Positions 1-23,275 of a stretch of 23,995 bases of DNA are shown in pieces; the first letter of the stretch is position 1; every line of letters begins with the position of its first letter. Origin of the DNA: Planctomycetota bacterium (GTDB lineage: Bacteria > Planctomycetota > GCA-002687715 > DRQF01); the NCBI GenBank assembly GCA_027001995.1, contig JALTLO010000039.1, positions 1-23,995 of the forward strand, read 5' to 3'. A program made the position numbers and the translations under genes. The notes beneath the pieces were generated by a model. That model was not told the DNA's origin. It worked only from the letters and a program-made list of their open reading frames with translations, and searched no databases.

Positions 1-955
1 GGCTGCAGAGGGTTGTCAAATTCCCGAGATCATGAGTCCCACCGTTTTCGCGAAAGATGATGTGGTGAACATGCAGATTGCGACTGCCTTGGCAGTGAAC
101 ACAGCGGTGCCCATCCCGTGCTAGGACGCGACGCCTTGTGGAGGGTGGTGTTGGTGAGGCGTTCTTGGCTCCCAACACTTCTCCATCACAACGAACGATC
201 TCACTTTCCTCTTGAGTCAAGGCGATGGGGCCGTCATCCGTTGCCAAGTGAGATTGGCTGCAATTCACGCAATGGTTAACGGTCACTTGAAAAAGAGAAG
301 ATCCGGCAGTCTTTTCTTCCTGCCCCTCATGCTCTCCTTGTCGCAAGAAATACTCGGCCAAGAATTGCAAGAATTCACCATCATCCAAATCACCACCAGC
401 TTCTTCATGAAGTTTCTTACGGGCTTGCTCCAAGAATTCATGACTCAAAGGGGAAAGCTTGGCAGAAAACTTGAACTTAACGGTGGGCACACCTTTGCCA
501 TCTTCTCTCGGTGGTCGTCCTGCTTCTGAGCCCCGCACCTCCAATTCTAAACGTTCACAAGAAACTGTTGCTGCTCTCTCTAACCAGGCCTTCTCATTTT
601 CTGGAGTGGCGATTTTCGTGAGCAAACGCACTTTCGACCAAGAGATATTGCTTTGGCAAAAGGCTTCATCAATAAGAGGGAGTTCTTGCAAGGCTGCCCC
701 CACAGTAATCAAAGTGCGGGCTAATCTTCTGCTCATCTCCAATCGCTGCCGAGCAAATTGAACAGCACTGACAAAACCAAGGGCTTGATGAAGACCACGT
801 CTTTGCATGTCATGAAGATAGAAAGCCAAAGCCCGACGGGCTACATCACTGCTCCGATTGTGAAGCAAAAGAGTCCCTTCCAACTCCTGGGCGTCAAGGC
901 CAAAACGTAGGTGAACGGCTGGGATTTCGTCTTGAGATTTGGGGGCAATACTCAT
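1..955 (-). CDS. HNH endonuclease with DUF222-like N-terminal helical region (partial; runs off the left edge)
   Basis: Manual translation from ATG at 955 is open to the window edge: MSIAPKSQDEIPAVHLRFGLD...LQELPLIDEAFCQSNISWSKVRLLTKIATPENEKAWLERA...HCVNC...TPPSTRRRVLARDGHRCVHCQGSRNLHVHHIIFRENGGTHDLGNLTTLCS. RDxxxCxxC...HHI...GG...NLxxLC is the classic HNH signature. Not in the ORF track because there is no stop in the window. Confidence 0.88.
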   Translation of the reverse strand, partial: MSIAPKSQDEIPAVHLRFGLDAQELEGTLLLHNRSSDVARRALAFYLHDMQRRGLHQALGFVSAVQFARQRLEMSRRLARTLITVGAALQELPLIDEAFCQSNISWSKVRLLTKIATPENEKAWLERAATVSCERLELEVRGSEAGRPPREDGKGVPTVKFKFSAKLSPLSHEFLEQARKKLHEEAGGDLDDGEFLQFLAEYFLRQGEHEGQEEKTAGSSLFQVTVNHCVNCSQSHLATDDGPIALTQEESEIVRCDGEVLGAKNASPTPPSTRRRVLARDGHRCVHCQGSRNLHVHHIIFRENGGTHDLGNLTTLCS

Positions 956-992
956 GTGATTCTTCCGGTTAAAGTTCTAAACCTGAATCAGC

Positions 993-1021
993 ATTATAGT
1001 CTTTGTGGGGGTCAGAATCAG
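993..1021 (-). promoter_or_regulatory. Putative sigma70 promoter of the HNH gene
   Basis: Perfect TATAAT on the minus strand (993-998), weak -35 CTGATT at 17 bp spacing (1016-1021), and GGAAG just upstream of the ATG at 955. Confidence 0.4.
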
Positions 1022-1652
1022 GCAGACAAAACTCTTTAGAAACGGAGTCGTGATCTGCAAAAGTGCCACGGGCATCGAGATATCCGGGGCTCGGAAACAT
1101 CCGTTCAAGGTCGCGACCTCAAAGAAGGTGACGCTGAAGATCTAAGACCTGATGGCCGCTTGCAAGAGTCTGACTTCGAGTTTAGGACACCACATCTGCA
1201 CACCATTACAGAGTTCGACATCTGCCTATCTGCTCACGCAGCAAGACCGCGGATCATTTCCGCTTACAATCAGGTAAAATCTTGATTCGTTCCCGTTCCC
1301 ATCGACCTCAGTAGGGGGCTTCCAATCTCTCGCCAGATAGCGAGTAATCTTGCTAATTCGCACCGCTGATGCCTAACCCACGACTCTAAAGAAATCACAG
1401 CAAAGTGGGCCCATTCCCGCCAGACCTTTCCACCACCCAACACCGGGGAAACCAAAATACAATCCACCGTCATAGCGGTAAATTACGTGCCCAATCTCAA
1501 GCTGGCTCACGCCAACCCGCAATGATGCATCACGTCAAAAAAAAATGAAACTTTCACAATATCGTGATAGCGTGCGCGTAGTGCGGATTGCGTTCCACGT
1601 CCGATGATCGTGGCTATGGTCATACTGACACCGCATTGATCAACGATAAAGA

Positions 1653-3671
1653 TTGTCGAACTTGAATGTGAGAGTCCCTGTGAAAGACCGATTACCCGCA
1701 ATTGCGCTACTGTTGGCAGTCGTTTCTGCCTGTTGGTGGGGCCTTGGTGATGCCGTCGGAAGATACATCGGCCCCCAAGATCGCCCAGACCTTGAGACGT
1801 CCGATCAGGATACCGTGTCTATATCCCGCAAAACGAAGATTGAGGTGCCTGAGTCCCTCCTCCCAGATTCTAAACATGGAGCAACAGGAGAGATCCTGGG
1901 GGGGCGGGCGCTGGAGCTTCAGAAGGAATACCGGATTGGCATGTCTGGTGTCGCGAGTCGGATTGGACCAGCCTACTGGCGTTTTCTGGCACATCTCCTG
2001 CCGCCGTCCCTTGATGAAAGAGAACACGATGGCCGTATCAGCCATCTTCTCTACCTATCCAAGTTGGATGCATTTCACGAAGTTGCCTATGCAGTCGATT
2101 GGTGCAACAACTTGACCTCACTTCGACAGGATCTTTTCGTCGGTGGATTCGGCCGCACCCTGCTAGACCAAATTCAGTCGGGCCGGCTGCCAGAGTTCGT
2201 CGACAAGATGGACGGGCTGTCAAGGCGTGATGTAATGCTTGCAAAGAAGCATTGTCTTGCCCTCCCCTACCTGGTTGCCTGCAAGAGCGATGTCCTTCGC
2301 AAAGTGATTCGCCGGGACAGAGATGATGCTGTTCGATTGCTTTGCATGATCGATCCGAGGCGCAATGCTGAAGGGCTGAAGTCATGGGCTTCCGTCATAG
2401 ACCATTGGGGCAGCCGAAAACTCCTGGACATTGAGAAACGTTTTGGCCGACATGTCCTAATTCTCGCTGCGGAAGGGAGCCCAACAGAGGATAGCTTAAG
2501 CAGGTTCTTCATGAGACTGGGCGAAAAGGCTCGGGGACGATTCGATCGTGCCTATGTCATGACAATGCGGTACGAATCCCGTATCCGGCATGCGGCAAGG
2601 AAAGGGAAGTTTGCTGTTGCCGTTGACACAGCGAAAGATCTGATTCTCTCCTTAGATGAAGAGCGGTTCTCCGAATTCACAATGTTTAACAACTTGCTGG
2701 ACTTAGCCTGCGAAGGCCGCCCAAGCAACCGATGGGGAATGTCCCTCATGCGATCCGCCGGCCCGGCAGTAGGTGAGGTTATCTACCATTTCTATCCGTC
2801 CAGCAGACAAAAGTACATTGATCGTACGCCGGGTTGGCAAGAGAACAACGATGACGCCAATGTACGAAAGGGACTGATCGATCTCCTTTCCTACAAGGCT
2901 GGCGAATATCTCGGGCTGCTCCTGCAGGTCAACGACGAAGGCAAGCAAACTGAGTTGAGGTCAGTGATGACGAAGCTGGGCCAATTCTCGGATGATGATC
3001 GACGAGAAATTCTGCTGTCGCTGGCCGCCAAAGGCTTGCTTTCTCCGAGCGCCCTCCCGGAAACGGCCAAAAACAAGGCAAAGCAGCTAGCAGAGAAGGT
3101 CAAGACCATATCGCCCGAAGAAGAAGTGCTCGATTTGCTACCCCTCTACTCCAGCACCATAACATTTTGGAATTATGCCCAAGGATATCATATTTCCAAT
3201 TTGGAACTTGGTTTAGCGGTTCTTGATGCGGCTATGAGTGTCGTCGAAGTAGGCCCAGCGATAAGCAAAGGAGCGCTGAAGCTGGCCGCCAAGGGAACTA
3301 AGTCTGCGGTGAGAGCCGCTGGACATAAGACAACTAGAACAACGATAGCGAAAACGCTTACTAAGGCTGGGAAAGCTACGGTCAAGAAAGTTGGCAAGAA
3401 AACTCGGATTTTGATCGATGCCGCAGGTCTTGCAAGCCGAGGAAGCTCTGATGATGCCGTGACCTTGATGACAAAATTGGTCCAAAGGACCAGCAAGAGG
3501 ATGGGCATCAAAACAACAGGCGTGTTGGACCCTCGAATCCTCATGAGGGGGGATCGTCGCGTCAAGCTTGTATTCGATCTAACTTGTTTCAAGGAATTTG
3601 TGAAAAGAGAGGTTTTGGAAAACGCGATGTGGGAGTCGGCCTTTTTTCTCTTCGACCGAGCCCTTAACTAA
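1653..3671 (+). CDS. Hypothetical N-terminally membrane-anchored protein with K/A/T/G-rich amphipathic C-terminus (gene 1 of GTPase operon)
   Basis: 672 aa ORF with N-terminal hydrophobic segment LPAIALLLAVVSACWWGLG. True start may be GTG 1668 or 1680 (GAGAG upstream of 1680). 15 bp gap to the next gene. Confidence 0.8.
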   Translation: MSNLNVRVPVKDRLPAIALLLAVVSACWWGLGDAVGRYIGPQDRPDLETSDQDTVSISRKTKIEVPESLLPDSKHGATGEILGGRALELQKEYRIGMSGVASRIGPAYWRFLAHLLPPSLDEREHDGRISHLLYLSKLDAFHEVAYAVDWCNNLTSLRQDLFVGGFGRTLLDQIQSGRLPEFVDKMDGLSRRDVMLAKKHCLALPYLVACKSDVLRKVIRRDRDDAVRLLCMIDPRRNAEGLKSWASVIDHWGSRKLLDIEKRFGRHVLILAAEGSPTEDSLSRFFMRLGEKARGRFDRAYVMTMRYESRIRHAARKGKFAVAVDTAKDLILSLDEERFSEFTMFNNLLDLACEGRPSNRWGMSLMRSAGPAVGEVIYHFYPSSRQKYIDRTPGWQENNDDANVRKGLIDLLSYKAGEYLGLLLQVNDEGKQTELRSVMTKLGQFSDDDRREILLSLAAKGLLSPSALPETAKNKAKQLAEKVKTISPEEEVLDLLPLYSSTITFWNYAQGYHISNLELGLAVLDAAMSVVEVGPAISKGALKLAAKGTKSAVRAAGHKTTRTTIAKTLTKAGKATVKKVGKKTRILIDAAGLASRGSSDDAVTLMTKLVQRTSKRMGIKTTGVLDPRILMRGDRRVKLVFDLTCFKEFVKREVLENAMWESAFFLFDRALN

Positions 3672-3686
3672 TAGAAAGGCGGAAAT

Positions 3687-4601
3687 ATGATGAAAAAATG
3701 GGTACTCTTAATGGCCTGCCTACTGCCGATCTCAGCAGAATGCGATCTCGCCCACGGCCAGAGTCTCCGGCGTCTGCTTGGAAAGTTTGCCCGCAGGACA
3801 GCTTCAAATGGCGACGACCTGTTGAAAAATCTGGGGAAGAATGCTGACGCCAAGATCTTCACGCGGTCGACCGATGATCTCGTCAGGCGCATGGATACCG
3901 AGCTAGACATCCTCAAGCGATTCGATGTGCGAGCAAAAAAACTTGGCCTCGACAATGATCTCATTCGCTCCGTGCGCAAGCTTCCCAAGAAGGACCAGGC
4001 GAGATTTCTGCACCTCGCAGGTGAGATAAAGCCTATCCTCGAGACGCCAGGTCGAGGGTTGCGCGTTGTTTCCTTGCTGGATGTAGACGGTCTCTATCTC
4101 GCAAAGGTCTACGGCGATGAAGTCGTGGAGGCCACTGCTCGTCTCGGGGATCGGCGATTCCTGAAGGTTGTACGACGGACCGGCGAGCACGGCGTTGAGT
4201 TCTTTCGCAAGTGGATTAAGCCACACTGGAAGAAGTGGGCTGGTACCGCTGCTTTGACCGCCTTCCTTGCTGAACCTGATGCCTTCATTGACGCGGCCGG
4301 CAACCTTACCGAGCACGCCTCGGAGCAATTCACAAGACTCGGTATCAAAGTTGCTTCAGCTCCTTTTACAGGCGTGGCGACTGGAATAATCGAGTCTTTT
4401 AAAGAGTCGCCTTGGCGCCTCTTTGTCGGGGGCATTTCACTCCTGGCGATTCTACTATATATCCTGAAGAGGATTGGAAAGCTGCCCACGCAACTCATTG
4501 GCTGGCTGCGGTCAGGGCGGAAGAATACACCAACCACAAAAGTTGTTGTTAAGAATGAAAGGATGGAGGAGCTTCTTCCTCCCGGTGTGGATGATGAGTA
4601 G
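3687..4601 (+). CDS. Hypothetical exported/membrane protein (gene 2 of GTPase operon)
   Basis: 304 aa with RBS-like GAAAGG, signal-peptide-like MMKKWVLLMACLLPISA...AHG-Q, hydrophobic WAGTAALTAFLA and C-terminal TM LFVGGISLLAILLYIL followed by KR. The stop overlaps the start of the GTPase gene. Confidence 0.82.
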   Translation: MMKKWVLLMACLLPISAECDLAHGQSLRRLLGKFARRTASNGDDLLKNLGKNADAKIFTRSTDDLVRRMDTELDILKRFDVRAKKLGLDNDLIRSVRKLPKKDQARFLHLAGEIKPILETPGRGLRVVSLLDVDGLYLAKVYGDEVVEATARLGDRRFLKVVRRTGEHGVEFFRKWIKPHWKKWAGTAALTAFLAEPDAFIDAAGNLTEHASEQFTRLGIKVASAPFTGVATGIIESFKESPWRLFVGGISLLAILLYILKRIGKLPTQLIGWLRSGRKNTPTTKVVVKNERMEELLPPGVDDE

Positions 4602-7227
4602 TCAAGAATTGACTCGTAGAATCGGATTGTGGGGGTTGCCGTCAAGCGGCAAAACTGTCTGGCTGACCTCTCTCGCCGTAAACGCCAAGGACGGTGCGCT
4701 GGATCAAGTATTCAACGTAACGGCTGTCGATAGTGAAGTCCAAGAAATAGTTGAATCATGGCGACACCGACTGCTTGATGAACAATTGTGGCCTCTCGCC
4801 ACAGACACAACGGCCCATGAGGGGTTGCCGCCACTTCGTTTTGAGTACAGTGATGGAAACCTGCGCCGACAGCTTGTCTTCAACGACTTCGCTGGCGAAT
4901 GGTTCCATGGCTTGAGGATCGTCAAGAAACAAGCACTTGGCGAAAACGAACGCCAGAGCATCATCGAGTTCATCCAAGGGTGCGACTGTATCCTCGTCAT
5001 GGTCCCCTTTGCTGAAGAGAGTGCCGGCCGGGCAAATACCATCTCTTCACTGGACATTCTTCTGGCGGCGTTGAAGAGCATTTCCCGCAAGGATTCACGG
5101 CTGAAGATCCCCATCGCCCTGTGCGTGACCTGCTGGGACAGATCAGCCGAATCCTTCGGAACACTGGAGCAGGAATCAGCCCGAGCTCTTGAATACATGA
5201 ATTCCCAATTCAGTGAGGTCCTTCATGGCTTGAAGGCCGATTGTGACGATGATTGCGTCAGTATTTTCCCCATTTCGTCCACAGGGCACGGCGAAGTTCT
5301 CCCGGACGAGAAGGAGCCCCACGCACGCCCTCCGGAGCGTTTCCAAGCTTTCAACGTTATTGGACCACTCTCATGGGCTCTTCCGCAGTCCGAACAAGTT
5401 CGATTTGAAGCGATCAAGGCCAACTATGATCGCCATCGCAAAGACTTGCTGAAGAAGCGCTCCAAGAAAGACAAGCAAGGACGACACGAGACCCATGGCG
5501 AGCATATCGTTCGACAGTTGCAACAACAGGTCATCAATCGCCTTCCACTGGATGACAAACTCAGGGCTCAGGCCGAACAGATCAAGAAAACAATCGAAGA
5601 CCAGCAGGCAGCGGCCCGTCGTCGACTTACTGTCGCCTCCTTCATGGTCGTTGCCTTGCTTCTTGTCGTGTATGGCGTCGTGGACTATCGCGCCAAGGTC
5701 CGGGAGGCGAACAAACTTGTCTCAAAAGAACTTGAACAAGCAGAGGTAACACTGAACAGCGAACAGGACCCGGCTGCCATGACGCAGAAAATCCAAGCTT
5801 TGAAGCGTACCCTGAGTGACGCTAAAGATTGGGTAACACAAGAGACTCGCGACAAGGTCCTTGCCATGGAGGGCAAATTGACAAAGCGTCGGGACACATT
5901 GGTCAACCAAATTCATGGGCGACGATTTGCTGCCTTGGAGGAGGAGATAGCTTTGATTCCCCGCAACGGAATCAGCAATCTAGGAAATCGCATAGAGCTA
6001 TTCGAAGGCTATCTGAAGGATGACGACAAATCAACTAACGCTCAGAAGCTGAAAGGATGGCTAACTGAGGACCGCAGCAGGCTGAATCAACTCACGATGA
6101 GAAAGAGTGAAGCTCGTGCTTTTGAAGAGTGGAGAAAGCGAGAAAAGAGCTCTCGCGGTTCAAGAATGGAAGACCTTGAGCGCCGCATTGAGATGCATCA
6201 AGATTACTTGACGAGAATTCAGCAGGATGACATGAGAGCCGCGATCCAAGAAGCACTTAATTCTGACTACGCCCTGCAGGAAGAGACCCGGAAAGACGAA
6301 CGCTTTCAGGTTGCGGTCAATGATCTAATTAGACAGATCGACGAAACCAGCGAACTGGGTGCCGTTGCACTCTACGACGCTTTTCTCGAAGAGTGGGGTG
6401 GAACTGGGCATGATAAAACCCGAGCCATCCGCGAGCGACGTATGAGCACCTTGCGTGAGGCTGATGAAAACGAGTGGGGTTATGTCCAAAGTAAGTTGAG
6501 AGAACATAACAACATGGAAGCTTTGAAGGCCGTGAGAGGATACTTGGCCGAGGCTCGTTTTCGCCGACACGTAGTCGAGGCCGAAAACTTGATTGAGAGA
6601 ATCCCTCAGAAGATGGATCAGGAATTGTATGAGGAATTCAAAGAGGCTTCCACGAGCTCAGATGGTGTAGCAGGTTCACTTAGCCGGTGTATGGAGTTAG
6701 CAAGAGCCTACCAAGATGGCTTGCATCTACCCAATGAAGACAAGCCCATGATGACTGAAGTTCAACGGTGGATGGTTTGGCATGGTGCACTGACGGATCC
6801 AAAACGAAAACATGTCATCAAGTTCTTCGGATGCAAAATCAAAATCACAGACAATGGTAATCTGGACATTTGGGAGGACCCTGATATCAGGGTCCTTTTG
6901 TGGGGAGAGGGATTCGACAATAAAAAGGCTAAGACCATCGAACGAGAAGTTGAGGAGATTGGCAAATTCGAAAAGCTACCGATACCCGATGAGGCTGAAT
7001 ACGAGAACTTTCACTGGAGTTGGGGCAAGAAGTTGATGATCGAGGTTATAGAGTCAGATGGCGCTCAGAAACTCAAGATCGAGGTCGAGGCTGCAAAACT
7101 TCCATTTGGTGGCAAGAATGGAACGTGGATCACCGTAAGTGATGACAACAAGGGATGTTCGATCAAGCTCAAGTTCGAGGGTGATGTTTTCTTTGAGCAA
7201 CTCCCAAACTACAAGAAGAAGCAATAA
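4591..7227 (+). CDS. TRAFAC-class GTPase domain protein with single TM helix, long coiled-coil and C-terminal beta domain (gene 3)
   Basis: G1 GLPSSGKT (4633-4656), G2-like PLATDTT, G3 DFAGE (4885-4899), G4-like TCWD (5128-5139), G5-like FPISSTG. TM LTVASFMVVALLLVVYGVVDY (about 5626-5688) follows RRR, then an E/K/R-rich helical region. Start moved from 4474 to ATGATG at 4591, which overlaps the upstream stop and lies just before the P-loop strand. Confidence 0.85.
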   Translation: MMSSQELTRRIGLWGLPSSGKTVWLTSLAVNAKDGALDQVFNVTAVDSEVQEIVESWRHRLLDEQLWPLATDTTAHEGLPPLRFEYSDGNLRRQLVFNDFAGEWFHGLRIVKKQALGENERQSIIEFIQGCDCILVMVPFAEESAGRANTISSLDILLAALKSISRKDSRLKIPIALCVTCWDRSAESFGTLEQESARALEYMNSQFSEVLHGLKADCDDDCVSIFPISSTGHGEVLPDEKEPHARPPERFQAFNVIGPLSWALPQSEQVRFEAIKANYDRHRKDLLKKRSKKDKQGRHETHGEHIVRQLQQQVINRLPLDDKLRAQAEQIKKTIEDQQAAARRRLTVASFMVVALLLVVYGVVDYRAKVREANKLVSKELEQAEVTLNSEQDPAAMTQKIQALKRTLSDAKDWVTQETRDKVLAMEGKLTKRRDTLVNQIHGRRFAALEEEIALIPRNGISNLGNRIELFEGYLKDDDKSTNAQKLKGWLTEDRSRLNQLTMRKSEARAFEEWRKREKSSRGSRMEDLERRIEMHQDYLTRIQQDDMRAAIQEALNSDYALQEETRKDERFQVAVNDLIRQIDETSELGAVALYDAFLEEWGGTGHDKTRAIRERRMSTLREADENEWGYVQSKLREHNNMEALKAVRGYLAEARFRRHVVEAENLIERIPQKMDQELYEEFKEASTSSDGVAGSLSRCMELARAYQDGLHLPNEDKPMMTEVQRWMVWHGALTDPKRKHVIKFFGCKIKITDNGNLDIWEDPDIRVLLWGEGFDNKKAKTIEREVEEIGKFEKLPIPDEAEYENFHWSWGKKLMIEVIESDGAQKLKIEVEAAKLPFGGKNGTWITVSDDNKGCSIKLKFEGDVFFEQLPNYKKKQ

Positions 7228-7228
7228 C

Positions 7229-8461
7229 ATGGCTTGGTATTACTTTCACGGTCCCCTCACAGGCCGCGGCTTTGGCGATTTCTTTCATGGAATCCCCACC
7301 AACGAGATATTGAGAATCTTGGCGACCTACCGACGAAATCGCCGGGCTGACTCTTCTCTTGTGATAACCGAATGGGAGAGACCCGACGCCAGCTTCTCCG
7401 GTCGTCGAGCTCGATGCACCATGATCTATCCGCGGGTGCAAGAATCTGCGGCGGTTCCGCTGCCGCCGAACGGACCTGCTGATTTGGAGCGATTACGCTG
7501 GCACTCCATTTCTCTATCCGAGTTTGCTTCAGAGCCCCGTCTGGTGGCGGCGAAAGAACCTGCCATAGAGGCTCCTCTTACTAAGAACTCAACGACATCA
7601 AGACGTTCTTCCAAACTCCCAAGAATTCTTGTCTGCATGGGTCTCATCGTCCTAATTGTTGGCATCTACAGCATGGTCGAAAAGGCCTTCCTGTGGGTGG
7701 GGACTGAGGGCGACCCAAAGGGTCGCCCATCTCATTCCCGGCCTAACCAAGACGACCCCACCAGTCCTTCAACATCACTCGAAAAAGAGCACAGTCTGAC
7801 CGACGACGAGCGACATGCTCAGCAATTCCACTGGCTTGCAGAAAAACTCTCGGGAAAATCACTGCAACGCAATGATCTGAACGCTCAAGGATTGGCGATC
7901 CTGAACGTGATTCGCCGCAATCGAGCAGTAGAAAAACTCAACACAAGGGAAGACTACTTCGAGAGATATTTGAAGCCCAACACCATGTCATTCGGAAAAC
8001 GAGACATCTACTATGCCACTCTTCCAAAGAGCGATTACATTCCGCCCGTATGGAATACCACCGGTGGACTGCGCATCAAGAACTCCAAAACAGCCTTTGA
8101 CGGCCTTGTTCAGCTTCTCAATGAAATCCACAAGCGCCACAAGTCGCTGCAAACCGACGCTCGATTCCGTGAGCTAAGGTTTCCGTTTGAAGAAGTAAGG
8201 AAACCAGGACAGGAGAAGCCTATGCCGTTTCAACCTCTTGTCAGCATTGACGACTTAGATTCGATCGGAGTTCAAACCTTGGTCAGGGAATTATCTTGGT
8301 CCAAATTCAAGAACCGCAACGACAGAGCCTCATTCAAGCTGAAGGACGACGACGATGAGACCACCATGCAAAAGAAGGAAGCCAAGAGACACGAGGAGAT
8401 TGAAAAGGACAAAAGTGCTTTGGACGAATTCGCGAAACTGCCTTTATCCAATTGGCAATAA
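7229..8461 (+). CDS. Hypothetical single-pass membrane protein (gene 4 of GTPase operon)
   Basis: ATG at 7229, 1 bp after the GTPase TAA (the track start 7139 overlaps the GTPase). MAWYYFHGPLTGRGFGDFF..., central TM ILVCMGLIVLIVGIYSMV preceded by basic RRSSK. Confidence 0.8.
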   Translation: MAWYYFHGPLTGRGFGDFFHGIPTNEILRILATYRRNRRADSSLVITEWERPDASFSGRRARCTMIYPRVQESAAVPLPPNGPADLERLRWHSISLSEFASEPRLVAAKEPAIEAPLTKNSTTSRRSSKLPRILVCMGLIVLIVGIYSMVEKAFLWVGTEGDPKGRPSHSRPNQDDPTSPSTSLEKEHSLTDDERHAQQFHWLAEKLSGKSLQRNDLNAQGLAILNVIRRNRAVEKLNTREDYFERYLKPNTMSFGKRDIYYATLPKSDYIPPVWNTTGGLRIKNSKTAFDGLVQLLNEIHKRHKSLQTDARFRELRFPFEEVRKPGQEKPMPFQPLVSIDDLDSIGVQTLVRELSWSKFKNRNDRASFKLKDDDDETTMQKKEAKRHEEIEKDKSALDEFAKLPLSNWQ

Positions 8462-8467
8462 GATCAG

Positions 8468-8505
8468 TCCTTGGCCACAATAGCGCGCCCTATCCTGGCC
8501 AAGGA
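8468..8505 (+). terminator. Stem-loop immediately after the GTPase operon (possible terminator or stabiliser)
   Basis: TCCTTGGCCA (8468-8477) pairs perfectly with TGGCCAAGGA (8496-8505), with an inner ATAG/CTAT pair. It starts 7 bp after the stop and has no U-tract. Confidence 0.45.
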
Positions 8506-8850
8506 GGCCCTTACCTTGCAGCTCTTAGAGAATGCCACAGAGGTGGGTAGATCTACATAGATGGTCACCCCCGCAGAAAAAAGTCCCCCTAAGGCACAAA
8601 GGAGTGATGCGCCGATTCTTGTTGTATGGTCTCACGCAACTCCCTCATACGATTGCCACGCCTACGGTCATCCTTCCATCCTCAGCAGTCTTCTCTGTTC
8701 CAAGTGGCTGTAATTTGAGTATTCAAGCATCTACCCAGGTGAAAACCGTCTAACAGTGTTTGTTAGGTCCCCACTGTCCTTGGGGGCAATGGTGGTGTAG
8801 GTTCATGGGGCGTTTCGGCGGACCATGACCATGGAGGGAGAAAAGGCGCG

Positions 8851-10056
8851 ATGGAAGCAGCACTCACCTGGCTTGACTTGACAACAGCAGATCGAGATCG
8901 GATGCGGCGTCTGCTCGATCTTTTCTCTGAGAAAGGCACGGTCGATGAGTTGGGCCTGGGGGTTGTACGGGACATGATCTCGGACGCCCTCTTTCCTGGG
9001 ACTTCGACCATTCAAACACGGCTGCGCTACTTTCTCTTCATTCCCTGGATCTACCGAGATCTCGAAGACAAGAATATCGACTCCCCCGAAATTGAAGATA
9101 AAGCCCGAGAACGAGAAATAAGCTTGATCCGCTCGCTTTGCGAAAACGGTGATGAGAAAGGTGTTATTGGAGCAAGATCAAGAAGCCGCCTAAGGCGTCT
9201 GCCCAGTGCTGTCTACTGGGCGGGACTCATACGCTGGGGCATATTCAGTCATCATCAAAGCCTCGCGTGGTATCACCGAAATTTTTCGTCCTTGAAGCGT
9301 CGCCGCCATGGCTACGGGACGGCAGATGACCCAGGAGTCGTTTGGACCAGGGAACCCAACTGGCATCGGAGACTCCCAGAGAAACCACAGGGGTTCCCCT
9401 GGGAAGCGAGTTTCGATTTGACTGATGAAGAAGCAGAGTTCCTTAAGGCTCGCATAGAAGATTCCTGTCCTAACACCTTCCTGAGCTTTCTTGTGGAGCG
9501 CCGCTCTTCCTTCCTGGCTGATGATTTCTGGGATCGAGAGATGCTCCTTGGGCTGGATTCAGAGAATTCCCAGATAGTCGAGATGGCTCGGCGATTTTCG
9601 CTGCATGTGGAAGGGGCGCCCCTGGTATACAACCTGCTGCTAGCGGAAAAACGCCACCGTGATCAGGCCGGAGGCGACGAGGAACTCATAGAAGACTATC
9701 GGATCGAGCTTCAGCAGTGGGCTGAGGAAGAGCGTGGGGAAGACCCCTTTCAACCAGATGATCTTTGGGATCTAATGGCGCGGCAGGGGGCGCGCACATT
9801 GCTTCCACTGCGAAAATTCATCGAGGCCTGGACCCGAGGTGTCAACCGCTGCGGGGCTTCTTCTGTGGTCAACAATCGTGACCTGAGGGACTTGATTGCC
9901 CGACGGGAGATCCAGTTGAAGGGCAATCGTGCCCGCCTGGTGCATACCGGAAGGTTGATGGACTGGTCAGGAAGAGTTGGTGTTGGTCGTATGGACTTTC
10001 GCTGGCATCGGGTAAGACCTCTGCTCCAAGACCTATACAAGGGTCTTGCAAACTGA
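8851..10056 (+). CDS. DUF6361 family protein (Azaca ZacA-like)
   Basis: N-terminal WLD...GTVDELGLGVVRDMISDALFPGTSTIQTRLRYFLFIPW, PSAVYWAGL and C-terminal MDFRWHRV are recognised as DUF6361. RBS GGAGGGAG lies upstream; TGATG overlap with the next gene. Confidence 0.8.
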   Translation: MEAALTWLDLTTADRDRMRRLLDLFSEKGTVDELGLGVVRDMISDALFPGTSTIQTRLRYFLFIPWIYRDLEDKNIDSPEIEDKAREREISLIRSLCENGDEKGVIGARSRSRLRRLPSAVYWAGLIRWGIFSHHQSLAWYHRNFSSLKRRRHGYGTADDPGVVWTREPNWHRRLPEKPQGFPWEASFDLTDEEAEFLKARIEDSCPNTFLSFLVERRSSFLADDFWDREMLLGLDSENSQIVEMARRFSLHVEGAPLVYNLLLAEKRHRDQAGGDEELIEDYRIELQQWAEEERGEDPFQPDDLWDLMARQGARTLLPLRKFIEAWTRGVNRCGASSVVNNRDLRDLIARREIQLKGNRARLVHTGRLMDWSGRVGVGRMDFRWHRVRPLLQDLYKGLAN

Positions 10057-11873
10057 TGCTGGCTCCAGACCTAAGGCGTGTGGCTGTTGAATTCTTGATG
10101 CCGCCACCCGAGATGCAACTCGACATGGCTGTGCTAACCACCTATTCCCTCGATTTGGAGACGATGCTAGCATTGCCCCTGGCCGTACTAGCACAGGCAG
10201 AGGGGAGCGTTGAAGACTTGATGGAAAATCCCCTCCTTCTCTTAGAAGGCTTGCGAGAAGCCGGTGACCGCATTCATGTGTTCTGTGACTCCAGTGGAAT
10301 TGCCCTGCCCCAACAACATCGTGCTCTCTATGGCATCCTTGAAAATTGTGTGCACCCTGTGGGCGCACCCCACGGTGGGGTGTTTCATCCCAAGGTATGG
10401 TGTGTACGTTTCAAAGATGAAGAGGACCATATCCTTATGCGTGTCGCCGTGCTATCTCGGAACCTAACGACTGCCAGGTCATGGGACATGGCACTTGTAA
10501 GTGAAGTTGAACCTTTTCCGAAGCAAAGGCCAAAGGGCAGCCAAGACCTTAGCTCATTGATCGAGTCTCTCGGTGATCTGTCGACCCAGCCCCTCTCACA
10601 AGAACTGCGTGAAGACCTAGGCAACTTTGCGGACATGCTTTCCCGCTGTCTATTCCCGGCCCCGGACCGATTCTATGGGGCCCTTGAGTTTTTCTGCCTG
10701 GGCCTGGGCAATGAAGAGGGAACACTCTGGGCACCCCCAAACAATGATCGACTCTTAGCCATGGCACCTTTCGTCACGGCTCGAGCCCTGAAACACCTTG
10801 CGGCGACAAGTCGCGGTACCTGTCTTCTGTTTAGCCGTGCTGATGAGCTGGATCAGATGGTGAAAGAGAGAAACGACAGCCTTGAAGATTGGGACAATGT
10901 TCAGGTCCTAAATGACAGTCTTCTCGATGTCGATGAGGGCGCGTCAGTGATGCCCCGAGGCCTCCACGCCAAGGCAATTGCGATAGAGCATGGGCACAAA
11001 GTAACTTGGTATGTCGGCTCGGCCAACCTGACAACGGCGGCCCTGGGTGGCAAGAATGTTGAACTTATGGCCGCCATCACTGGAAGGCGAGGGCGCCGGG
11101 AAGGTGTTCACGGAGAAGGTATTGAGTTCTTCTTGAAAGCCGGGTTCGGCAATTTGTGTCACCCCTATGTGCAGGCTGAACCCCAGCCCGAGTCCACAGA
11201 GGCCATGGCTGCCCGGAAGATCCTGGAGGAAACTAGAAAGTCAATCATTGGAGCCAAGGCCCAGGTGTTCTGTCAATCTAACGAGGATGACAACTGGTCT
11301 TTGTCACTTAAGATGAAGGTGGCGCTTCCTGAAGGCGTTGAGGTCTCTGTCTGGCCACTGAGTGTCCCCAAAGCTCGTTCTAAGGAACTTTCACAAACTG
11401 TTTCTTGGACTGTGCCCGCTGCCTGCCTCACCGCTTTCATGGGGTTCCGGCTGGGAGTTTCTCTCGGCAGTGTGCCGGACATATGTTTCACGCGTAAGAT
11501 TCCCGCAGTGGGATTGCCGGAAAACCGTACGGCCCAGATCCTGCGCAGTCTCATTTGCAGTCAAGAGAACTTCCTTTGTTTCCTGCGCGCCCTTCTCGGG
11601 AGCATCGAGGGCACTGTTGGTGAAGAAAGCATCACTTTTCAAGGAAGCAAAGAAAGTGGCAACTGGGACCAAGTTTTGCCGTCAGATGCCCTGTTAGAGG
11701 ATCTTGTTCGGGCGGTATCCAGAGATCCCGAACGACTGAATTCTCTAGCCCGCTTGGTAGATGATTTAAGAGGATCAGATGAAGGTTTGGCGCTGATCCC
11801 CGATGGATTTCTTGCCCTTTGGAATGTCATTGAGCAAACCCTAGAGCGAAGGAAAAATCGTGAAGAAGCCTGA
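10056..11873 (+). CDS. Phospholipase D superfamily nuclease-like protein (Azaca ZacB-like)
   Basis: Two HxK motifs with downstream SxNLT: FHPKVW...VLSRNLT and LHAKAI...VGSANLT. N-terminal TTYSLDL motif. 1 bp overlap upstream, 14 bp overlap downstream. Confidence 0.85.
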   Translation: MLAPDLRRVAVEFLMPPPEMQLDMAVLTTYSLDLETMLALPLAVLAQAEGSVEDLMENPLLLLEGLREAGDRIHVFCDSSGIALPQQHRALYGILENCVHPVGAPHGGVFHPKVWCVRFKDEEDHILMRVAVLSRNLTTARSWDMALVSEVEPFPKQRPKGSQDLSSLIESLGDLSTQPLSQELREDLGNFADMLSRCLFPAPDRFYGALEFFCLGLGNEEGTLWAPPNNDRLLAMAPFVTARALKHLAATSRGTCLLFSRADELDQMVKERNDSLEDWDNVQVLNDSLLDVDEGASVMPRGLHAKAIAIEHGHKVTWYVGSANLTTAALGGKNVELMAAITGRRGRREGVHGEGIEFFLKAGFGNLCHPYVQAEPQPESTEAMAARKILEETRKSIIGAKAQVFCQSNEDDNWSLSLKMKVALPEGVEVSVWPLSVPKARSKELSQTVSWTVPAACLTAFMGFRLGVSLGSVPDICFTRKIPAVGLPENRTAQILRSLICSQENFLCFLRALLGSIEGTVGEESITFQGSKESGNWDQVLPSDALLEDLVRAVSRDPERLNSLARLVDDLRGSDEGLALIPDGFLALWNVIEQTLERRKNREEA

Positions 11874-14800
11874 CGCTGAGGCCATTCTGTGCCCTCTAAA
11901 GCCTTTTCAACGCCGAACAGTTGATCATGCTTTTCATCGGCTATTCATCGCAAATGACAGTACAGCAAGATTCTTGGTGGCCGACGAGGTTGGACTTGGA
12001 AAGACACTGGTGGCCCGAGGCGTTATTGCTCGGGCTGTTGATCATCTTTGGCCCAACGTGAAGCACATCGACATCATTTATATTTGCAGCAACGCCAGTA
12101 TCGCCAGAGCCAACCTACCTAAACTCGAGATCGGCAACTGCGAAGGCAACTCGTTTTCGCTAGCCACGCGCCTAACCATGTTAGCGACTCAGCTCGCCGC
12201 CGGAGAGAAGGCTACTCCGGGGGCCAGAAGGCGGTTGAATTTCGTCAGCTTCACCCCAGGTACATCCTTCAACCTAAGCGGTGGTTCAGGGCACCAGGCA
12301 GAGCGGCGCGTCTTATTTCACCTATTGGCTCCTCTCTTGGGGTCCTCGAAGCGGCTCATGAATGTTCTCCAGGGGGGCATTGGGGACTATCGACGGTGGC
12401 GACAAAGCCTCAACGACAAGATTCCGATACACCGGGGCATCCGCCGTGATTTCGTCAAAGCATGGAAGAGGTCGCCTGAGCTTGAGGCGCGCTACGCCAG
12501 CTTTTCCCAACGTTGGTTTTCCCGCCCGAATTCAGATCTGTCACCAGAGGCCCGTCGGATTCGCAACCAATGGGTTGGCGAAGTACGCCGCCTCCTGGCG
12601 GCCATCTGTGTCGCTGCTCTTGAGCCGGACCTCGTCATTATGGATGAATTTCAACGCTTCAAATCCCTGTTGAACGAAGAGGAAGGAGCAGATCCTGCGG
12701 CTCAACTGGCACAATCCCTGTTCCAGGCAACCACGCCGGAGGGCCAGCCGGTTCGAACACTCCTGCTGTCGGCAACACCTTACAAGTTATTCACCTCAGA
12801 AGCGGAAATCGATCAAGACGATCACTACGTGGACTTCATCAATACCACCCGATTTCTCATGGGACAGGAGGAGACGGCTAGCATTGATGCTCTGCGAAAC
12901 GACCTCCAGGTTTTCGGCCAGGCGTTGAAGAGATCTCTTGTTGACGATGGTGCCGCAGTCATCGAGGCCAAGACGTCTGTAGAGCAGCGGCTCACCCGTG
13001 TCATGGCACGGACAGAGCGTGTTTCTGAGAGTGAAGATCACAACGCCATGGTGAACGAGAGACGTACCAACCTCTGCCCCACTCCCGCCGACATTGAGCA
13101 ATACATGGCAGCAGATGCGATCTTCCAGGCCGTTGGAGCCCAAGACCCCATGCCATTCTGGAAGGCAGCGCCTTATCTGTTTCACTTCATGCACGGTTAT
13201 CGCATGAACGACCATCTTGACGAAGCAGTCGAGCTGGAGGCCGATGCACTCCTCGAGGCCTTGCAGAAACATCAACATGCTCTCTTGTCACCCGGGCAGA
13301 TCAGCACATGGAATTCTATTGGCGACGCCCATGCCAAGTTACGAGAGATGCGCCAGCTCATTGTGAACAACGGGGCATGGAAGCGTCTTTGGATCGCAGC
13401 AACCGCTCCTTACTGGCCCTTGCAGGGTGCATTCCACGGGGCCGAAGAAGACAGTAAAACTCTACTGTTTTCAGCGTGGAACGTGGTGCCGGATGTTGTG
13501 AGTGCGCTTCTGAGCTATGAAACTGAGCGGCTCATGGTAGGAGGACGCATGGCATCCTATCAGAACCCCACCAGGCAGCAGAGTGCCCTATTGAGACTCT
13601 CCAAAGACAAGGAAGGAGAATTGAGTCGGCACAGATTGTTCCTACTTCTCATGCCTTGCCTCACCCTTGCGGACAAAGTTCATCCCCTTGCAGCCCCATT
13701 GGGATGTGACGTGCGCACATGGGCCCGAGAACTGGTTGAAGAACTCCTCGCTGGGCTTCCAGATCCCCAAACAGGTCCAGTTGATGAACGCTGGGAATGG
13801 GCAGCACCTGTACTCCTTGATCCAGGGCTATCAGCCTTCCTCCGAAAATGGCAAAGAAACAGGGCTCTTAAGCGACCCAATGGGAGCGTATTCGGCGCCT
13901 ATGTCCGCGAGATCGCCGGAATCAAGGCCGAAGAACTGGGCCAGCGCCCCCCTGGTCTCGTCGACCTTCTCGTCGATGTTGCGTTGGGGTCGCCGGCGAT
14001 CATTGCCAGTCGCTGCCTGGCAATGACCCCAATAAATGACTCAGCACGGCGGCTCCATTCTTCCTTTGTCGCCCAAGCATTCTGGAGCCTTTTTAATGGT
14101 CCAGCGGTCATCAGCCTTCTTATCGCTCTTTTCCACGATCAGATAGACGGCCAAGGCGATGTGCCGTATTGGCGCATGGTCCTACAATACTGCATCGACG
14201 GAAATCTACAGGCTGTGCTGGATGAGCAATGGCATATTCTCTGGGAACAGCAGTCCTGGCGTGACGAAGAAGAGCCGTTAAGGGCGGTAGAAACTTGCGT
14301 AGAAGATCTGGTCTACACCGTTGCGAAAGACCGTTCCACTCGTGTTCACGCCCAATTCTTTAGCACCACAAAGCGCAGCCCAGGGATTCGAACCCGGGAA
14401 ATTCGCATTCGAACCGACTTTGCTCTGCGCTTCGCCAACCTCCAAACCGATGATGAAGGAATGTCCCAGGACAAGGTGCGGGCGTCCTTCAACAGTCCAT
14501 TTCGCCCTTTCCTTCTGGCGAGCACATCCATCGGGCAGGAAGGGTTGGATTTTCATCCCTGGTGCCACCGTCTGACCCATTGGAATCTGCCTGGCAACCC
14601 TGTGGACCTGGAACAGCGAGAAGGCCGGGTACACCGTTACAAAGGTCTCGCTGTGCGCAAAAATGTTGCAGCCCGCCATGCCAATGCCGCGCGAAAGATC
14701 TGGCAACCCGGCGATGACCTTTGGACTATCATCTTTGATCTCGCCACCCAGGAAGCGCGCCAAGCTGGGGCTGAGGATCTTAGGCCATTCTGGTTGGCAC

Positions 14801-15015
14801 CAGGTCCTGCTCGGGTGGAACGGCACGTCCCTCTTTTGAGCTATTCGCAGGAGGAAGGGGCTTTCGCACGACTAAAACGTCAATTGGCCGCCTACCGCGT
14901 GGTATTCGGGCAACCACGCCAAGAAGAGCTTCTTGAGCTCTTAGATCGATCCAGCTTCAGCACCCAAGTCTTGAAGAGCTGGGTCATCGATCTGTCACCT
15001 CCAGATGTCGATTGA
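11860..15015 (+). CDS. SF2 (SNF2-like/DExx) helicase (Azaca ZacC-like)
   Basis: Q-motif LKPFQ, motif I ADEVGLGKT, II IMDEFQ, III LLSATP, V STSIGQEGLDF, VI LEQREGRVHR. GTG start overlapping the PLD stop. Confidence 0.9.
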   Translation: MKKPDAEAILCPLKPFQRRTVDHAFHRLFIANDSTARFLVADEVGLGKTLVARGVIARAVDHLWPNVKHIDIIYICSNASIARANLPKLEIGNCEGNSFSLATRLTMLATQLAAGEKATPGARRRLNFVSFTPGTSFNLSGGSGHQAERRVLFHLLAPLLGSSKRLMNVLQGGIGDYRRWRQSLNDKIPIHRGIRRDFVKAWKRSPELEARYASFSQRWFSRPNSDLSPEARRIRNQWVGEVRRLLAAICVAALEPDLVIMDEFQRFKSLLNEEEGADPAAQLAQSLFQATTPEGQPVRTLLLSATPYKLFTSEAEIDQDDHYVDFINTTRFLMGQEETASIDALRNDLQVFGQALKRSLVDDGAAVIEAKTSVEQRLTRVMARTERVSESEDHNAMVNERRTNLCPTPADIEQYMAADAIFQAVGAQDPMPFWKAAPYLFHFMHGYRMNDHLDEAVELEADALLEALQKHQHALLSPGQISTWNSIGDAHAKLREMRQLIVNNGAWKRLWIAATAPYWPLQGAFHGAEEDSKTLLFSAWNVVPDVVSALLSYETERLMVGGRMASYQNPTRQQSALLRLSKDKEGELSRHRLFLLLMPCLTLADKVHPLAAPLGCDVRTWARELVEELLAGLPDPQTGPVDERWEWAAPVLLDPGLSAFLRKWQRNRALKRPNGSVFGAYVREIAGIKAEELGQRPPGLVDLLVDVALGSPAIIASRCLAMTPINDSARRLHSSFVAQAFWSLFNGPAVISLLIALFHDQIDGQGDVPYWRMVLQYCIDGNLQAVLDEQWHILWEQQSWRDEEEPLRAVETCVEDLVYTVAKDRSTRVHAQFFSTTKRSPGIRTREIRIRTDFALRFANLQTDDEGMSQDKVRASFNSPFRPFLLASTSIGQEGLDFHPWCHRLTHWNLPGNPVDLEQREGRVHRYKGLAVRKNVAARHANAARKIWQPGDDLWTIIFDLATQEARQAGAEDLRPFWLAPGPARVERHVPLLSYSQEEGAFARLKRQLAAYRVVFGQPRQEELLELLDRSSFSTQVLKSWVIDLSPPDVD

Positions 15016-15160
15016 CATCGATACGAAATACGCTGGATAGAGGATTCAGCGCCCCTCGATTGCTCACGAGAAAAGATAAGACAGGGACTCCTTAGACTCA
15101 ATTCAGACTGAACGATCCTCATCACATATACAAGACGACATAAAGGGGCTCCAAATGGGA

Positions 15161-15169
15161 TGCTATCAT
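15161..15169 (+). promoter_or_regulatory. Possible extended -10 promoter for the small membrane protein
   Basis: TGcTATCAT about 100 bp upstream of ATG 15265. Confidence 0.25.
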
Positions 15170-15264
15170 TGTTAACTTTGCCCGGCCTTTTCTGTGTGAA
15201 CGTCCACAATCTCCTGAATAATTCAGGGCAAGTCGCAGGAAAATGGATAGTATCTGGCTACAAA

Positions 15265-15669
15265 ATGCACGAGCAATCGCCACAAAACTTGAAGATACCG
15301 GGACGTTGCGCCCTTTCCTTTGCCATGATCTATTTGATCGTGCTGGGATGCCTCTTGCTCAGTGAAGCATTCCATCCTGGGGATGCCCAAGGGACCATCT
15401 CTTTTATCCCGGGAGGAGAAGAACAGGCCGCTAAAGGCTACTTCTTTCATGTCATGGCCGGTCTCTTGGCCATTATCTGGAATGCACGCGGGTCTCGATC
15501 GAAGTTCCCTATGGCTTTTGCAGCCATTTCTTGCACCATCGCTGGTACTTGGACTTACATCGCTTTTACCCCAACGTTCTTTGGCCTGAGTGGCCTCATC
15601 CCGGGTGCCATCTGCGGTATTCTATTTGGGTATCGGATACACACACGCAATGCAGCCCGAGAGAGTTGA
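15265..15669 (+). CDS. Hypothetical small integral membrane protein (about 4 TM)
   Basis: Four hydrophobic segments (LSFAMIYLIVLGCLLL; YFFHVMAGLLAIIW; MAFAAISCTIAGTWTYIAF; FFGLSGLIPGAICGILFGY). Start is uncertain (15160 or 15265). Confidence 0.65.
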   Translation: MHEQSPQNLKIPGRCALSFAMIYLIVLGCLLLSEAFHPGDAQGTISFIPGGEEQAAKGYFFHVMAGLLAIIWNARGSRSKFPMAFAAISCTIAGTWTYIAFTPTFFGLSGLIPGAICGILFGYRIHTRNAARES

Positions 15670-15678
15670 CCGACGAAA

Positions 15679-16398
15679 TCAGAAATCGAGTTGGTGCACA
15701 GGCATATCAGCCACCAAGATTGGCGTCATAGCGATTCGATCCACACTGGCATTCTCATAACGAACCGTCTTGGAGAACACTTTCATGGGGCCGTTGTGGG
15801 CAATGGGCAGATCTGGACCATGAATATGCCCATAGACGACGAGGTCTACCGGATATCGGGCGATAATTTCCTCGAAGGCTGTGGGGGTTTTCTCAGGAGC
15901 CCATCGTGGGGGATAGTGAATCATCAAAAGGATCTTGTTGCCAGGGAAGTCCAACTCAGCGTTCCTGAGAGTCCTCTCTAAAGCCAAGCACGATTCCTCA
16001 AAAGGCTCACGCATCTCATCTTCTTTCCACCATGGCGACTCAGGCTGCTCCCACCCCACGGTGGCCGCAAGGGTCCAAGAGTCACTCAGGGGAATATGAG
16101 CATCCTTCAAGAAAAGGATAGAAGGCAAGGAAATTCGCTCTGTCTTCTTCCACCAACGATCATGATTTCCCGGTGAAATGACTTTCTGACCAGGAAGCCC
16201 ACTCAATATCTCAAGATGAGCCATGGTGGACTTTGTTGTCGTAGCCCACGTCACATCTCCGGGGACTAAGACCAAGTCGTCGTCTCGAACAACAGCCCTC
16301 CAGCGATCCTGGATTTTCTGCTCGTGGTCGACCCACACTTCACCGAATCGGCTCATGTCACGGCCGAAATGAGGGTCACTCAAACAATAAATCCGCAT
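15679..16398 (-). CDS. Calcineurin-like metallophosphoesterase (COG1768/DR1119-like)
   Basis: Full motif set SDPH, VPGDV, GNHD, IHYPP, YGHIH. Start moved to ATG 16398 (MRIYCLSDPH). Confidence 0.9.
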   Translation of the reverse strand: MRIYCLSDPHFGRDMSRFGEVWVDHEQKIQDRWRAVVRDDDLVLVPGDVTWATTTKSTMAHLEILSGLPGQKVISPGNHDRWWKKTERISLPSILFLKDAHIPLSDSWTLAATVGWEQPESPWWKEDEMREPFEESCLALERTLRNAELDFPGNKILLMIHYPPRWAPEKTPTAFEEIIARYPVDLVVYGHIHGPDLPIAHNGPMKVFSKTVRYENASVDRIAMTPILVADMPVHQLDF

Positions 16399-17654: not shown

Positions 17655-18626
17655 TTGGAAACGTTGGTCGCAGCACGAGTCTTCAAATGTCTATCGGAGG
17701 GAATCCGTCTCCGGCTGATCAGGCTTCTGGCTCAAGAAGAGCTCAACGGTAGCGAACTGCGCCAAATCCTTGATGTGCCCCAGTCCACCCTCTCCAGACA
17801 TCTCAACGTCCTGAAGGACGAGGGTTTTGTGCAATCGCGGCGGGAAGGAAATCACAGTTTCTTCCACTTGGATCACCAGCCACGACTCAATGGCACCACC
17901 GACGATTTACTCAGGATCATCCAAGACCTGACTGGTGACGACCCAGAGTTGGCCCAAGATCACGCTGGCCTCAATCAAGTGCTCGCCGAACGCAAGCGCA
18001 GCGTTCTTGAGCATTTTGAAGCGGCTGGAGAAAGCTGGGACGACTTCCAACAGCAACATGCCGATCACTTAGTGAAACAAAGAGCACTCAGCCGTCTTAT
18101 CCCTCAAGACAAGGTCATAGTCGATGTGGGTTGTGGGTCCGGCTACTTACTGCCAGAGCTGGCAGGTACTCAAGGCTCAGTAATCGCCATTGACAACGCT
18201 CCGGCACAGTTAGACCGAGCCCGGGCAAAATGCCGGCGAGAAGGCTTAGACAACGTCGAGTTTCGTCACGGCGAGTTGGAAGCCCTACCTCTCAAAGACC
18301 AAGAAGCCGACGCCGTTTTTGCTCACCTTTCACTGCACCACACTCCAAGCCCCGAATTAGCAGTTCAAGAAATGAGCCGCATCCTGAAACCGGGAGCCAC
18401 CCTTGTCATCACCGATTTCTTGGCCCACGAAGAAAGTTGGCTCCGAGACGAACACGCTGACCTGTGGTTGGGATTCGAGACGCAAGCAGTCGTCCAGTGG
18501 CTGAAAACCGCTGGATTCGAGAACATTCGACAAGAACAACATGCCTATGCCAGTAGCGCGGACGGCAAGCACCACGAAATCGCAAACAAACTAAAACTCT
18601 TCATCCTCAGCGGCACTCGGCCGTAG
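17655..18626 (+). CDS. sahR: ArsR-family HTH fused to a SAM-dependent methyltransferase-fold domain (SahR-like SAM-cycle repressor)
   Basis: N-terminal [16 protein letters not shown]...[23 protein letters not shown] (ArsR); C-terminal VDVGCGSG and LHH...RILKPG (class I MTase fold). TTG start with GGAG RBS, directly upstream of ahcY. Confidence 0.85.
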
Positions 18627-18649
18627 GAAACCGAAAGGAAGCTTTATCC

Positions 18650-19960
<1,311 letters not shown>

Positions 19961-21035: not shown

Positions 21036-21283
21036 AGGTTTTCCCGAAGGTTTTCCGTTTTGACATGAGCATAGAATCTGGGATTCTTGACTGAGTATTG
21101 TGAACTTGAGAGTATCGTTATGCGTTGTAGATGCAGGATTATCCGGTACTCAAGAATCATAGATCGTGGAGGCTGAGCCTGAGGCGTTCTTTCATTTTGC
21201 ATGACGCATGCTCGTAATTGGGACCTTAGACCCCAAACTACGGACTTCCGTGTTAGGCGGGCAACATTTAAAAGGAGTAATTC

Positions 21284-23203: not shown

Positions 23204-23275
23204 GAGAAGAATTGAAATGACCAGGGCAATGTGCGCTGGTTTTTGTCTCCAGGGAAACGAACGAAAGGTATTTTT

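Follow-up and report, generated by a model that had tools for sequence, protein, structure and literature searches.

Systems built around DO-GTPases and GAP1 proteins have been predicted to act in biological conflicts (Kaur, Burroughs, Iyer and Aravind, 2020; PMC7159879). As far as the accessible text of that paper goes, their GTP hydrolysis and anti-invader activity are predicted and not measured, and DO-GTPases and GAP1 proteins with transmembrane (TM) segments are always described with FNIII or GASH partners; two GTPases occur in only 38% of the systems, so that a single GTPase is not unusual. Here we analyze a four-gene operon (g1 to g4, positions 1653-8461, forward strand) from a Planctomycetota bacterium, carried on a stretch of 23,995 nucleotides (contig JALTLO010000039.1, assembly GCA_027001995.1) that is referred to below as the window. 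The four genes are a genuine, rare and conserved bacterial module, for which a literature search, run mostly without subscription papers, returned no description. Judged by sequence, the module appears to be an offshoot of the predicted DO-GTPase2/GAP1-N2 systems, neither a canonical member nor categorically new.

Like the GAP1-N2-type systems, the module pairs a DO-GTPase bearing a Glu after G3 with a gene in the GAP1 slot directly behind it, has C-terminal TM helices and extracytoplasmic domains on both proteins, and is patchily distributed with planctomycetes prominent. Unlike them, it is devoid of zinc ribbons, an FNIII/GASH gene and a second GTPase, shows no tubulin, HSP70, kinase or FGS theme, and, in the window copy of g4, has too few residues ahead of the TM helix to fit GAP1-M/C. 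As several features that define the known DO-GTPase/GAP1 types are missing from it, we set it apart from the canonical members. FNIII and GASH domains were absent by Pfam from the 14 window open reading frames (ORFs) and from the relatives of g1 and slot 4, most neighbours in related loci being scanned with NCBIfam and PADLOC instead. The exported genes g1 and g2 upstream do not figure in the text of PMC7159879 as far as it was accessible; the published neighbourhood data may list such a subtype unlabelled.

The best explanation overall, held at somewhat less than even confidence, is that the module forms an inner-membrane GTP switch derived from DO-GTPase2/GAP1-N2 systems. Charge and hydropathy would place the GTPase domain of g3 and the small g4 domain in the cytoplasm, and the g3 and g4 tails, with the main parts of g1 and g2, in the periplasm. 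By analogy, the g4 domain would regulate the GTPase as GTPase-activating protein or exchange factor, presumably in a complex with it. The fast-evolving tails of g3 and g4 would sense a periplasmic cue that alters the nucleotide state, with GTPase and partner setting the threshold, upon which the conserved hydrophobic hairpins of the putative effectors g2 and g1 would be released or assembled in the membrane. The purpose would be an inducible conflict response, in which a membrane change blocks or aborts the entry of an invader. We consider the switch architecture likely; the anti-invader purpose is advanced tentatively, as rather more doubtful than probable.

Gene layout and the DO-GTPase

The module consists of g1 (1653-3671, 672 amino acids, presumably starting at a TTG codon), g2 (3687-4601, 304 amino acids), g3 (4594-7227, 877 amino acids, the DO-GTPase) and g4 (7229-8461, 410 amino acids). 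As a first-pass annotation of the window had it, the genes are co-directional and closely joined (15-bp gap g1/g2, 8-bp overlap g2/g3, 1-bp gap g3/g4), and every product bears a TM helix or signal peptide, with hydrophobic segments in all of g1-g4; these were located with a 19-residue Kyte-Doolittle window, and topology was predicted from charge and hydropathy. Its statement that only g3 has a recognisable domain also holds, g3 alone among the four passing a Pfam cut-off, and so does its expectation of no match to known defence systems: PADLOC 2.0 matched none of its families to g1-g4 at E <= 0.1, and NCBIfam and PHROGs returned nothing for the module proteins. SrfABC, the type VI secretion membrane complex and a dynamin pair can be set aside, with no SrfB/SrfC, TssJ/L/M or Dynamin_N Pfam domains in g1-g4 or their relatives; Pfam includes Srf and Tss models. 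The G+C content of the operon equals that of the genome (51.5% vs 51.7%), and tblastn found no paralogues of g1-g4 in the source genome (G000). Contigs of run X1 match positions 746-16000 with no differences in the long pieces; as X1 may be the source of the assembly, this agreement is not independent.

The GTPase domain of g3 (approximately residues 9-265) matches Pfam DO-GTPase2 with 33.2 bits in the whole protein and 36.0 bits as an isolated domain (cut-off 27), which, together with the GAP1-N2 domain in slot 4 of a sister subfamily (see below), bears out the relation to DO-GTPase/GAP1 systems put forward in the first-pass annotation; the domain also just reaches DO-GTPase1 (27.5 bits). G1 (GLPSSGKT, starting at residue 14) and G3 (DFAGE) are intact, the Glu of G3 being a mark of the DO-GTPase family. 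G4 reads TCWD, without the usual Lys, and is mostly NKWD or TKFD in relatives. A TM helix at residues 345-363 (hydropathy 2.62) is preceded by three Arg and followed by a tail of about 510 residues that is predicted to be periplasmic; the sequence suggests an N-in topology with cytoplasmic GTPase and periplasmic tail. A profile of 16 relatives, built with the window protein excluded, picked g3 as the best of 16,690 ORFs of its own genome, at E 6e-29 and across most of the protein. Of 17 aligned GTPases, 8 matched the DO-GTPase2 model at E <= 0.05; hydropathy showed a TM segment in 16 of 17 GTPases and in all 12 slot-4 proteins. N-terminal zinc ribbons were not found in g3, and neither was a second DO-GTPase in the source genome (92% complete), which holds one DO-GTPase2 match. 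In a FastTree phylogeny of 42 GTPase sequences over 227 columns, the window GTPase sits on a long branch with a support of 0.45, and a single origin of both subfamilies introduced below was not resolved.

Membrane-anchored DO-GTPases were also observed as a group wider than the four-gene module. Further long TM versions with other partners lie at L174:8263-12805, L177:6368-11815, L178:8406-13427 and L175:5622-8945, the partners including an FHA-ABC transporter, an ABC-MlaE fusion and a 1,674-residue protein.

Conservation of the module and its exported proteins

Related loci were taken from two tight g2 subfamilies, A3 and A4 (the loci of P0007, the P0008 group, the P0006 group, the window's nearest g2 relatives, lie outside this sample). 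Scanning the genome collection for A3 yielded 18 loci, 14 from Planctomycetota, three from Pseudomonadota and one from Chthoniobacteraceae as judged from record titles. The order g1-g2-GTPase, with directly adjacent genes, is found in 18/18. Not every gene is whole: in L014 g1 is split and the GTPase short, in L028 both are split, and several genes are truncated at contig ends. The GTPase gene is followed by a TM gene of a single family, referred to as slot 4, in all 11 loci with room for it (two copies in L011), and no other neighbour family is common to more than three A3 loci. Identities of g1, g3 and g4 to their relatives are 14-21%, and the slot-4 tails cannot be aligned among relatives. 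The A4 subfamily comprises 74 metagenome loci, many of them short and closely related; where there is room, g2 is followed by the GTPase gene in 26 of 28, and the GTPase in turn by a conserved GAP1-N2-type TM gene in 14 of 19, slot 4 being absent or replaced in 5/19.

Four-gene synteny of homologues, named as a check in the first-pass annotation, holds for the A3 loci with room for slot 4; the parts also occur separately. L125 has g1-g2-g3 without slot 4, and in L173, whose genome belongs to the same family as the window, g1, the GTPase and a slot-4 TM gene occur without g2, beside DUF4411, IrrE-like and AAA genes. At L171:5449-10653, a GTPase-free g1-g2 pair precedes five small genes, of which four have N-terminal hydrophobic stretches and two are coiled-coil, and at L172:7083-11960 a distant g2 lies between a TM protein and a ParB plus VirD4-type coupling protein, in surroundings that look like an integrated transferable element. 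The module parts recombine, and the four genes are not inseparable. Several variants were noted in passing: two small genes that lie between g2 and the GTPase and weakly match HSDR_N and PIN (L114:10976-12038, also L071, L086, L087, L091, L095 and L097), a methyltransferase that comes after slot 4 in nine of the 26 long loci, and a single 735-residue protein, P0051, in which g2 runs into the GTPase and which may be an assembly error.

g1 and g2 are unnamed exported-protein families and, as far as the sequences tell, new. g1 has an N-terminal membrane anchor (residues 18-36, hydropathy a modest 1.59), a large region predicted to be periplasmic, a conserved C-terminal hydrophobic stretch (residues 519-537, 1.66) and a Lys/Ala/Gly-rich segment, with 15 Lys plus Arg vs one Asp plus Glu in residues 537-592. 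It ranked top, at E 2e-11, among the 16,690 ORFs of its genome in a search with a profile of 13 relatives that excluded the window protein. A search with the L011 copy returned 71 relatives, none of which (0/71) has a Pfam domain or functional name. g2 has a signal-like N-terminus (residues 6-24, 1.42), an all-helical body and a C-terminal membrane anchor (residues 245-263, 2.02), with a conserved Trp/Pro/Gly hydrophobic hairpin near residues 165-215; 130 matches at E <= 0.001 were obtained among 50%-identity representatives, one of them a fragment of itself. The AlphaFold2 model of g2 is all-helical, with a predicted local distance difference test score (pLDDT) of 79, and fold searches found no match to it in the PDB (Foldseek) or BFVD. 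The VIA fold search reached a best Z of 5.0, on a helix pair, and was likewise discarded.

An alternative that we regard as distinctly improbable takes the module as an insertion or export device, in which the GTPase and a longin-like g4 domain would act like a membrane-bound targeting receptor and drive the assembly or release of g1 and g2 as its cargo, serving cell-cell contact, antagonism or DNA transfer. The small exported coiled-coil proteins after the GTPase-free g1-g2 pair of L171 and the setting of L172 speak for it, as do the recurrence of SRX longin domains among the structural matches of g4 (see below) and two faint leads from g1 to membrane-inserting regions, namely a match to SseC at E 4e-5, below the cut-off, and a PT-TG feature score of 0.77, a lead only. 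Against it, L171 (E 1e-10) and L172 (E 5e-10) are single, distant cases, and g1 and g2 carry signal-like or anchor segments of their own (12 of 14 and 65 of 82 proteins). There is moreover no conserved toxin domain, immunity gene or outer-membrane channel in the module, and assignment of g1 as a PT-TG polymorphic toxin was dropped after neither whole proteins nor isolated segments gave a PT-TG Pfam match.

The gene in slot 4

The g4 protein begins with a domain of about 130 residues, followed by a TM helix (residues 133-151, 2.43) and a variable domain, and matches the slot-4 gene of the relatives in position, size and topology. In the second subfamily, the slot-4 gene is of GAP1-N2 type: the Pfam model was matched in five of seven copies tested, one of them at the cut-off, and profile-to-profile comparison with 14 GAP1-N2 domains gave a probability of 88% (E 3e-7). 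The earlier assertion that GAP1, GASH and a second GTPase are missing applies to the window copy, and for GAP1 only at the level of sequence, as the same slot holds GAP1-N2 in the sister subfamily. GAP1-M and GAP1-C gave no Pfam match in 12 slot-4 proteins, the A5 slot-4 family matched neither the GAP1-N2 nor the second-subfamily profiles, and GAP1-N2 and GAP1-N1 matches were absent from G000. Searches of solved structures by sequence with A6, A7 and A8 gave no useful match; a hit to IpgB2 (E 8e-4) over a helical stretch only was taken as chance.

A longin-like fold had been expected from the strand-helix pattern of GAP1-N2. The model of the g4 N-terminal domain, computed with alignment A9, has a pLDDT of 62.8, with averages of 77-86 over residues 21-70. 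Its best structural match is 8zwc_B, with a Z of 3.9, below the level that the tool regards as meaningful, and a root-mean-square deviation of 4.5 over 94 aligned residues. Longin proteins account for 16 of the top 17 matches and longin, roadblock or DENN proteins for 31 of 50, with 11 of 50 PAS/GAF-like, these classes having been set from titles and general knowledge; SRX longin domains recur among them. The longin resemblance of the model is suggestive only; by analogy with the sister slot, the g4 N-terminal domain is probably a reduced, longin-like GAP1-N. Modelling the GTPase domain of g3 together with the N-terminal part of g4 as a complex yielded an ipSAE of 0.00 in two runs, in which the controls did not fold. 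Behind GAP1-N2, a short conserved domain (A8; L088:13898-15256 and relatives), for which a PDB sequence search found nothing, has a pattern reminiscent of the central DENN domain, and GAP1-N/M/C may correspond to the three-part DENN module.

A small-GTPase-like domain next to a predicted longin-type domain at a membrane recalls MglA-MglB, SRbeta-SRX and Rab-DENN (PMC3521125; 10.64898/2026.10.19.760177, both in the parts accessible); the likeness concerns the predicted fold only, at Z below 4 and with no sequence link, between these described pairs and a module known here from genes and models. In its accessible portion, the latter source refers to unpublished findings of longin-like domains alongside GTPases in systems directed against selfish elements, so that its authors may already be aware of the longin link. 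A bolder reading, which we consider improbable, would make g1 and g2 a new two-part membrane-inserting module that also occurs GTPase-free and is here placed under a membrane-bound GTPase/longin switch, a prokaryotic counterpart of SRbeta-SRX or Rab-DENN, which from the cytoplasm would gate membrane remodelling or permeabilisation when the periplasm signals, for example, the entry of a phage or a conjugative element.

Genomic context and purpose

The module is rare. g3 was not found in the genomes of 30 relatives, nor g2 in 400 genomes of the phylum (protein query and A3 and A4 profiles, with five candidates scored per genome). The broad g2 profile (A1) gave seven weak matches, L006-L010 among them, and two distant members that were confirmed; single-query genome searches are insensitive and missed L173, which was later recovered with the Pfam family. 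Defence context was assessed with PADLOC at E <= 1e-15, using neighbours from 14 of the 18 A3 loci and 15 hand-picked control stretches, two of which are G000 contigs with copies of an HNH gene. Neighbours clearly linked to conflict or mobility do occur, namely Azaca in the window, HEC-01 in L017, WYL with HTH in L015 and, in L013, a P4-type primase.

Several results weigh against the switch as a conflict device. The defence-island enrichment of homologues on which the first-pass annotation had staked its proposal was not found: defence models were matched by 7/77 neighbour ORFs vs 9/104 control ORFs (5/84 once the three G000 stretches were removed), several of the matches were to generic kinases or regulators, and many neighbours of related loci are housekeeping genes. 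No g2 relatives were detected in viral contigs (A3 query) or plasmids (P0002 query), and no toxic or pore-forming domain of known kind in the module. The A4 subfamily is conserved in sequence (46-80% to the query), and in its loci g1 is adjacent in 17 of 39 with room, elsewhere in the locus in three and not seen in 19. As for the proposed partner, profiles of the slot-4 family (A5), GAP1-N2 and the second subfamily all miss g4, Foldseek found no match for its model, and the modelled fold may be borrowed, the homology of g4 to the rows of its alignment being unproven.

The missing sequence link of g4 would also fit a window copy that is decaying or assembled by chance, with an unrelated membrane gene in place of GAP1 and a GTPase that no longer switches. 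This very improbable explanation draws further on the TCWD form of G4, on the long, poorly supported GTPase branch, and on the loss or replacement of slot 4 in L125 and in the five metagenome loci. It is countered by four intact and tightly coupled frames, by the size and topology that g4 shares with its slot-4 relatives, by a longin-like model that fits the slot, and by variation of G4 among relatives too, as in NAWD of L017.

A more serious competitor, yet one we still think unlikely, is envelope upkeep: the same switch would serve stress-induced membrane repair or remodelling with no anti-invader role, in the manner of YcjX/YcjF. As far as the accessible parts of the sources go, YcjX/YcjF beside the phage shock protein (psp) operons likewise combine a P-loop protein with a closely coupled partner gene and are linked to envelope stress (PMC3041696; 10.1101/2020.09.24.301986), and the Psp-linked DO-GTPase of the second source is, we infer, YcjX. 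The module differs in its four-gene layout with large periplasmic parts and in the absence of psp genes from the loci examined, and the match of g3 to DUF463 (YcjX) is non-significant (E 0.13). In favour of upkeep are the lack of defence-gene enrichment, a second subfamily that is conserved and often split, the extracytoplasmic function (ECF) sigma and/or kinase genes adjoining L012, L014 and L019, with an ECF-kinase pair in place of slot 4 in L103, and the dynamin-like P-loop gene pairs with C-terminal TM segments that lie beside the module in two unrelated genomes (L013:15844-19475, L026:1810-5633; Dynamin_N weakly matched the separate L013 pair). ECF-kinase pairs are, however, common in planctomycetes, and the module is very patchy, with no match of the A3 and A4 profiles in the 400 phylum genomes. 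On balance, a patchy occurrence, a range that takes in three phyla and rapid divergence, along with the unalignable slot-4 tails and the doubled slot-4 gene of L011, tilt us, at less than even confidence, towards a conflict role for the switch; that defence genes are lacking nearby, and that the second subfamily is conserved and frequently split, points, with lower confidence, to envelope upkeep.

In the window, the module is followed on the forward strand by a stem-loop (8468-8505), a possible transcript end or processing site, with 19-nt arms that are 84% complementary and a stability z of -2.55 (3/200 shuffles equally stable). The hairpin said to close the operon thus exists, but has no T-run and is absent from the terminator-scan list; repeat and promoter scans were at chance level only. 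Outside the module lies a complete Azaca system, zacA/zacB/zacC (8851-15015, forward strand; PADLOC E 1e-125, 7e-152 and 3e-303 for ZacA, ZacB and ZacC), and no Zac matches were found among the 77 neighbour ORFs of related loci. On the other side, a reverse-strand HNH gene (2-955, Pfam HNH 26.6 bits) is truncated at the contig end. The position between an HNH gene and Azaca noted earlier is correct, but the former has five more copies in G000 (C134, C199, C41, C28, C63; 56-94% identity, several at contig ends), behaves as a repeated, possibly mobile, element and, being multi-copy, is no specific sign of a defence island. Further downstream are an ArsR-methyltransferase followed by a gene resembling adenosylhomocysteinase (17655-19960), and ordinary exported proteins with carboxypeptidase-regulatory-like domains (20367-23623).

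The DO-GTPase/GAP1 systems are computational predictions in the cited papers, as far as these were accessible. With a compact, clonable four-gene form, two new families and a clear catalytic control, the module makes their function testable. If GAP1-N is indeed a longin domain, the family would represent bacterial GTPase-longin control at the membrane, found for the most part in planctomycetes, a group in which the dynamics of membranes are poorly explained.

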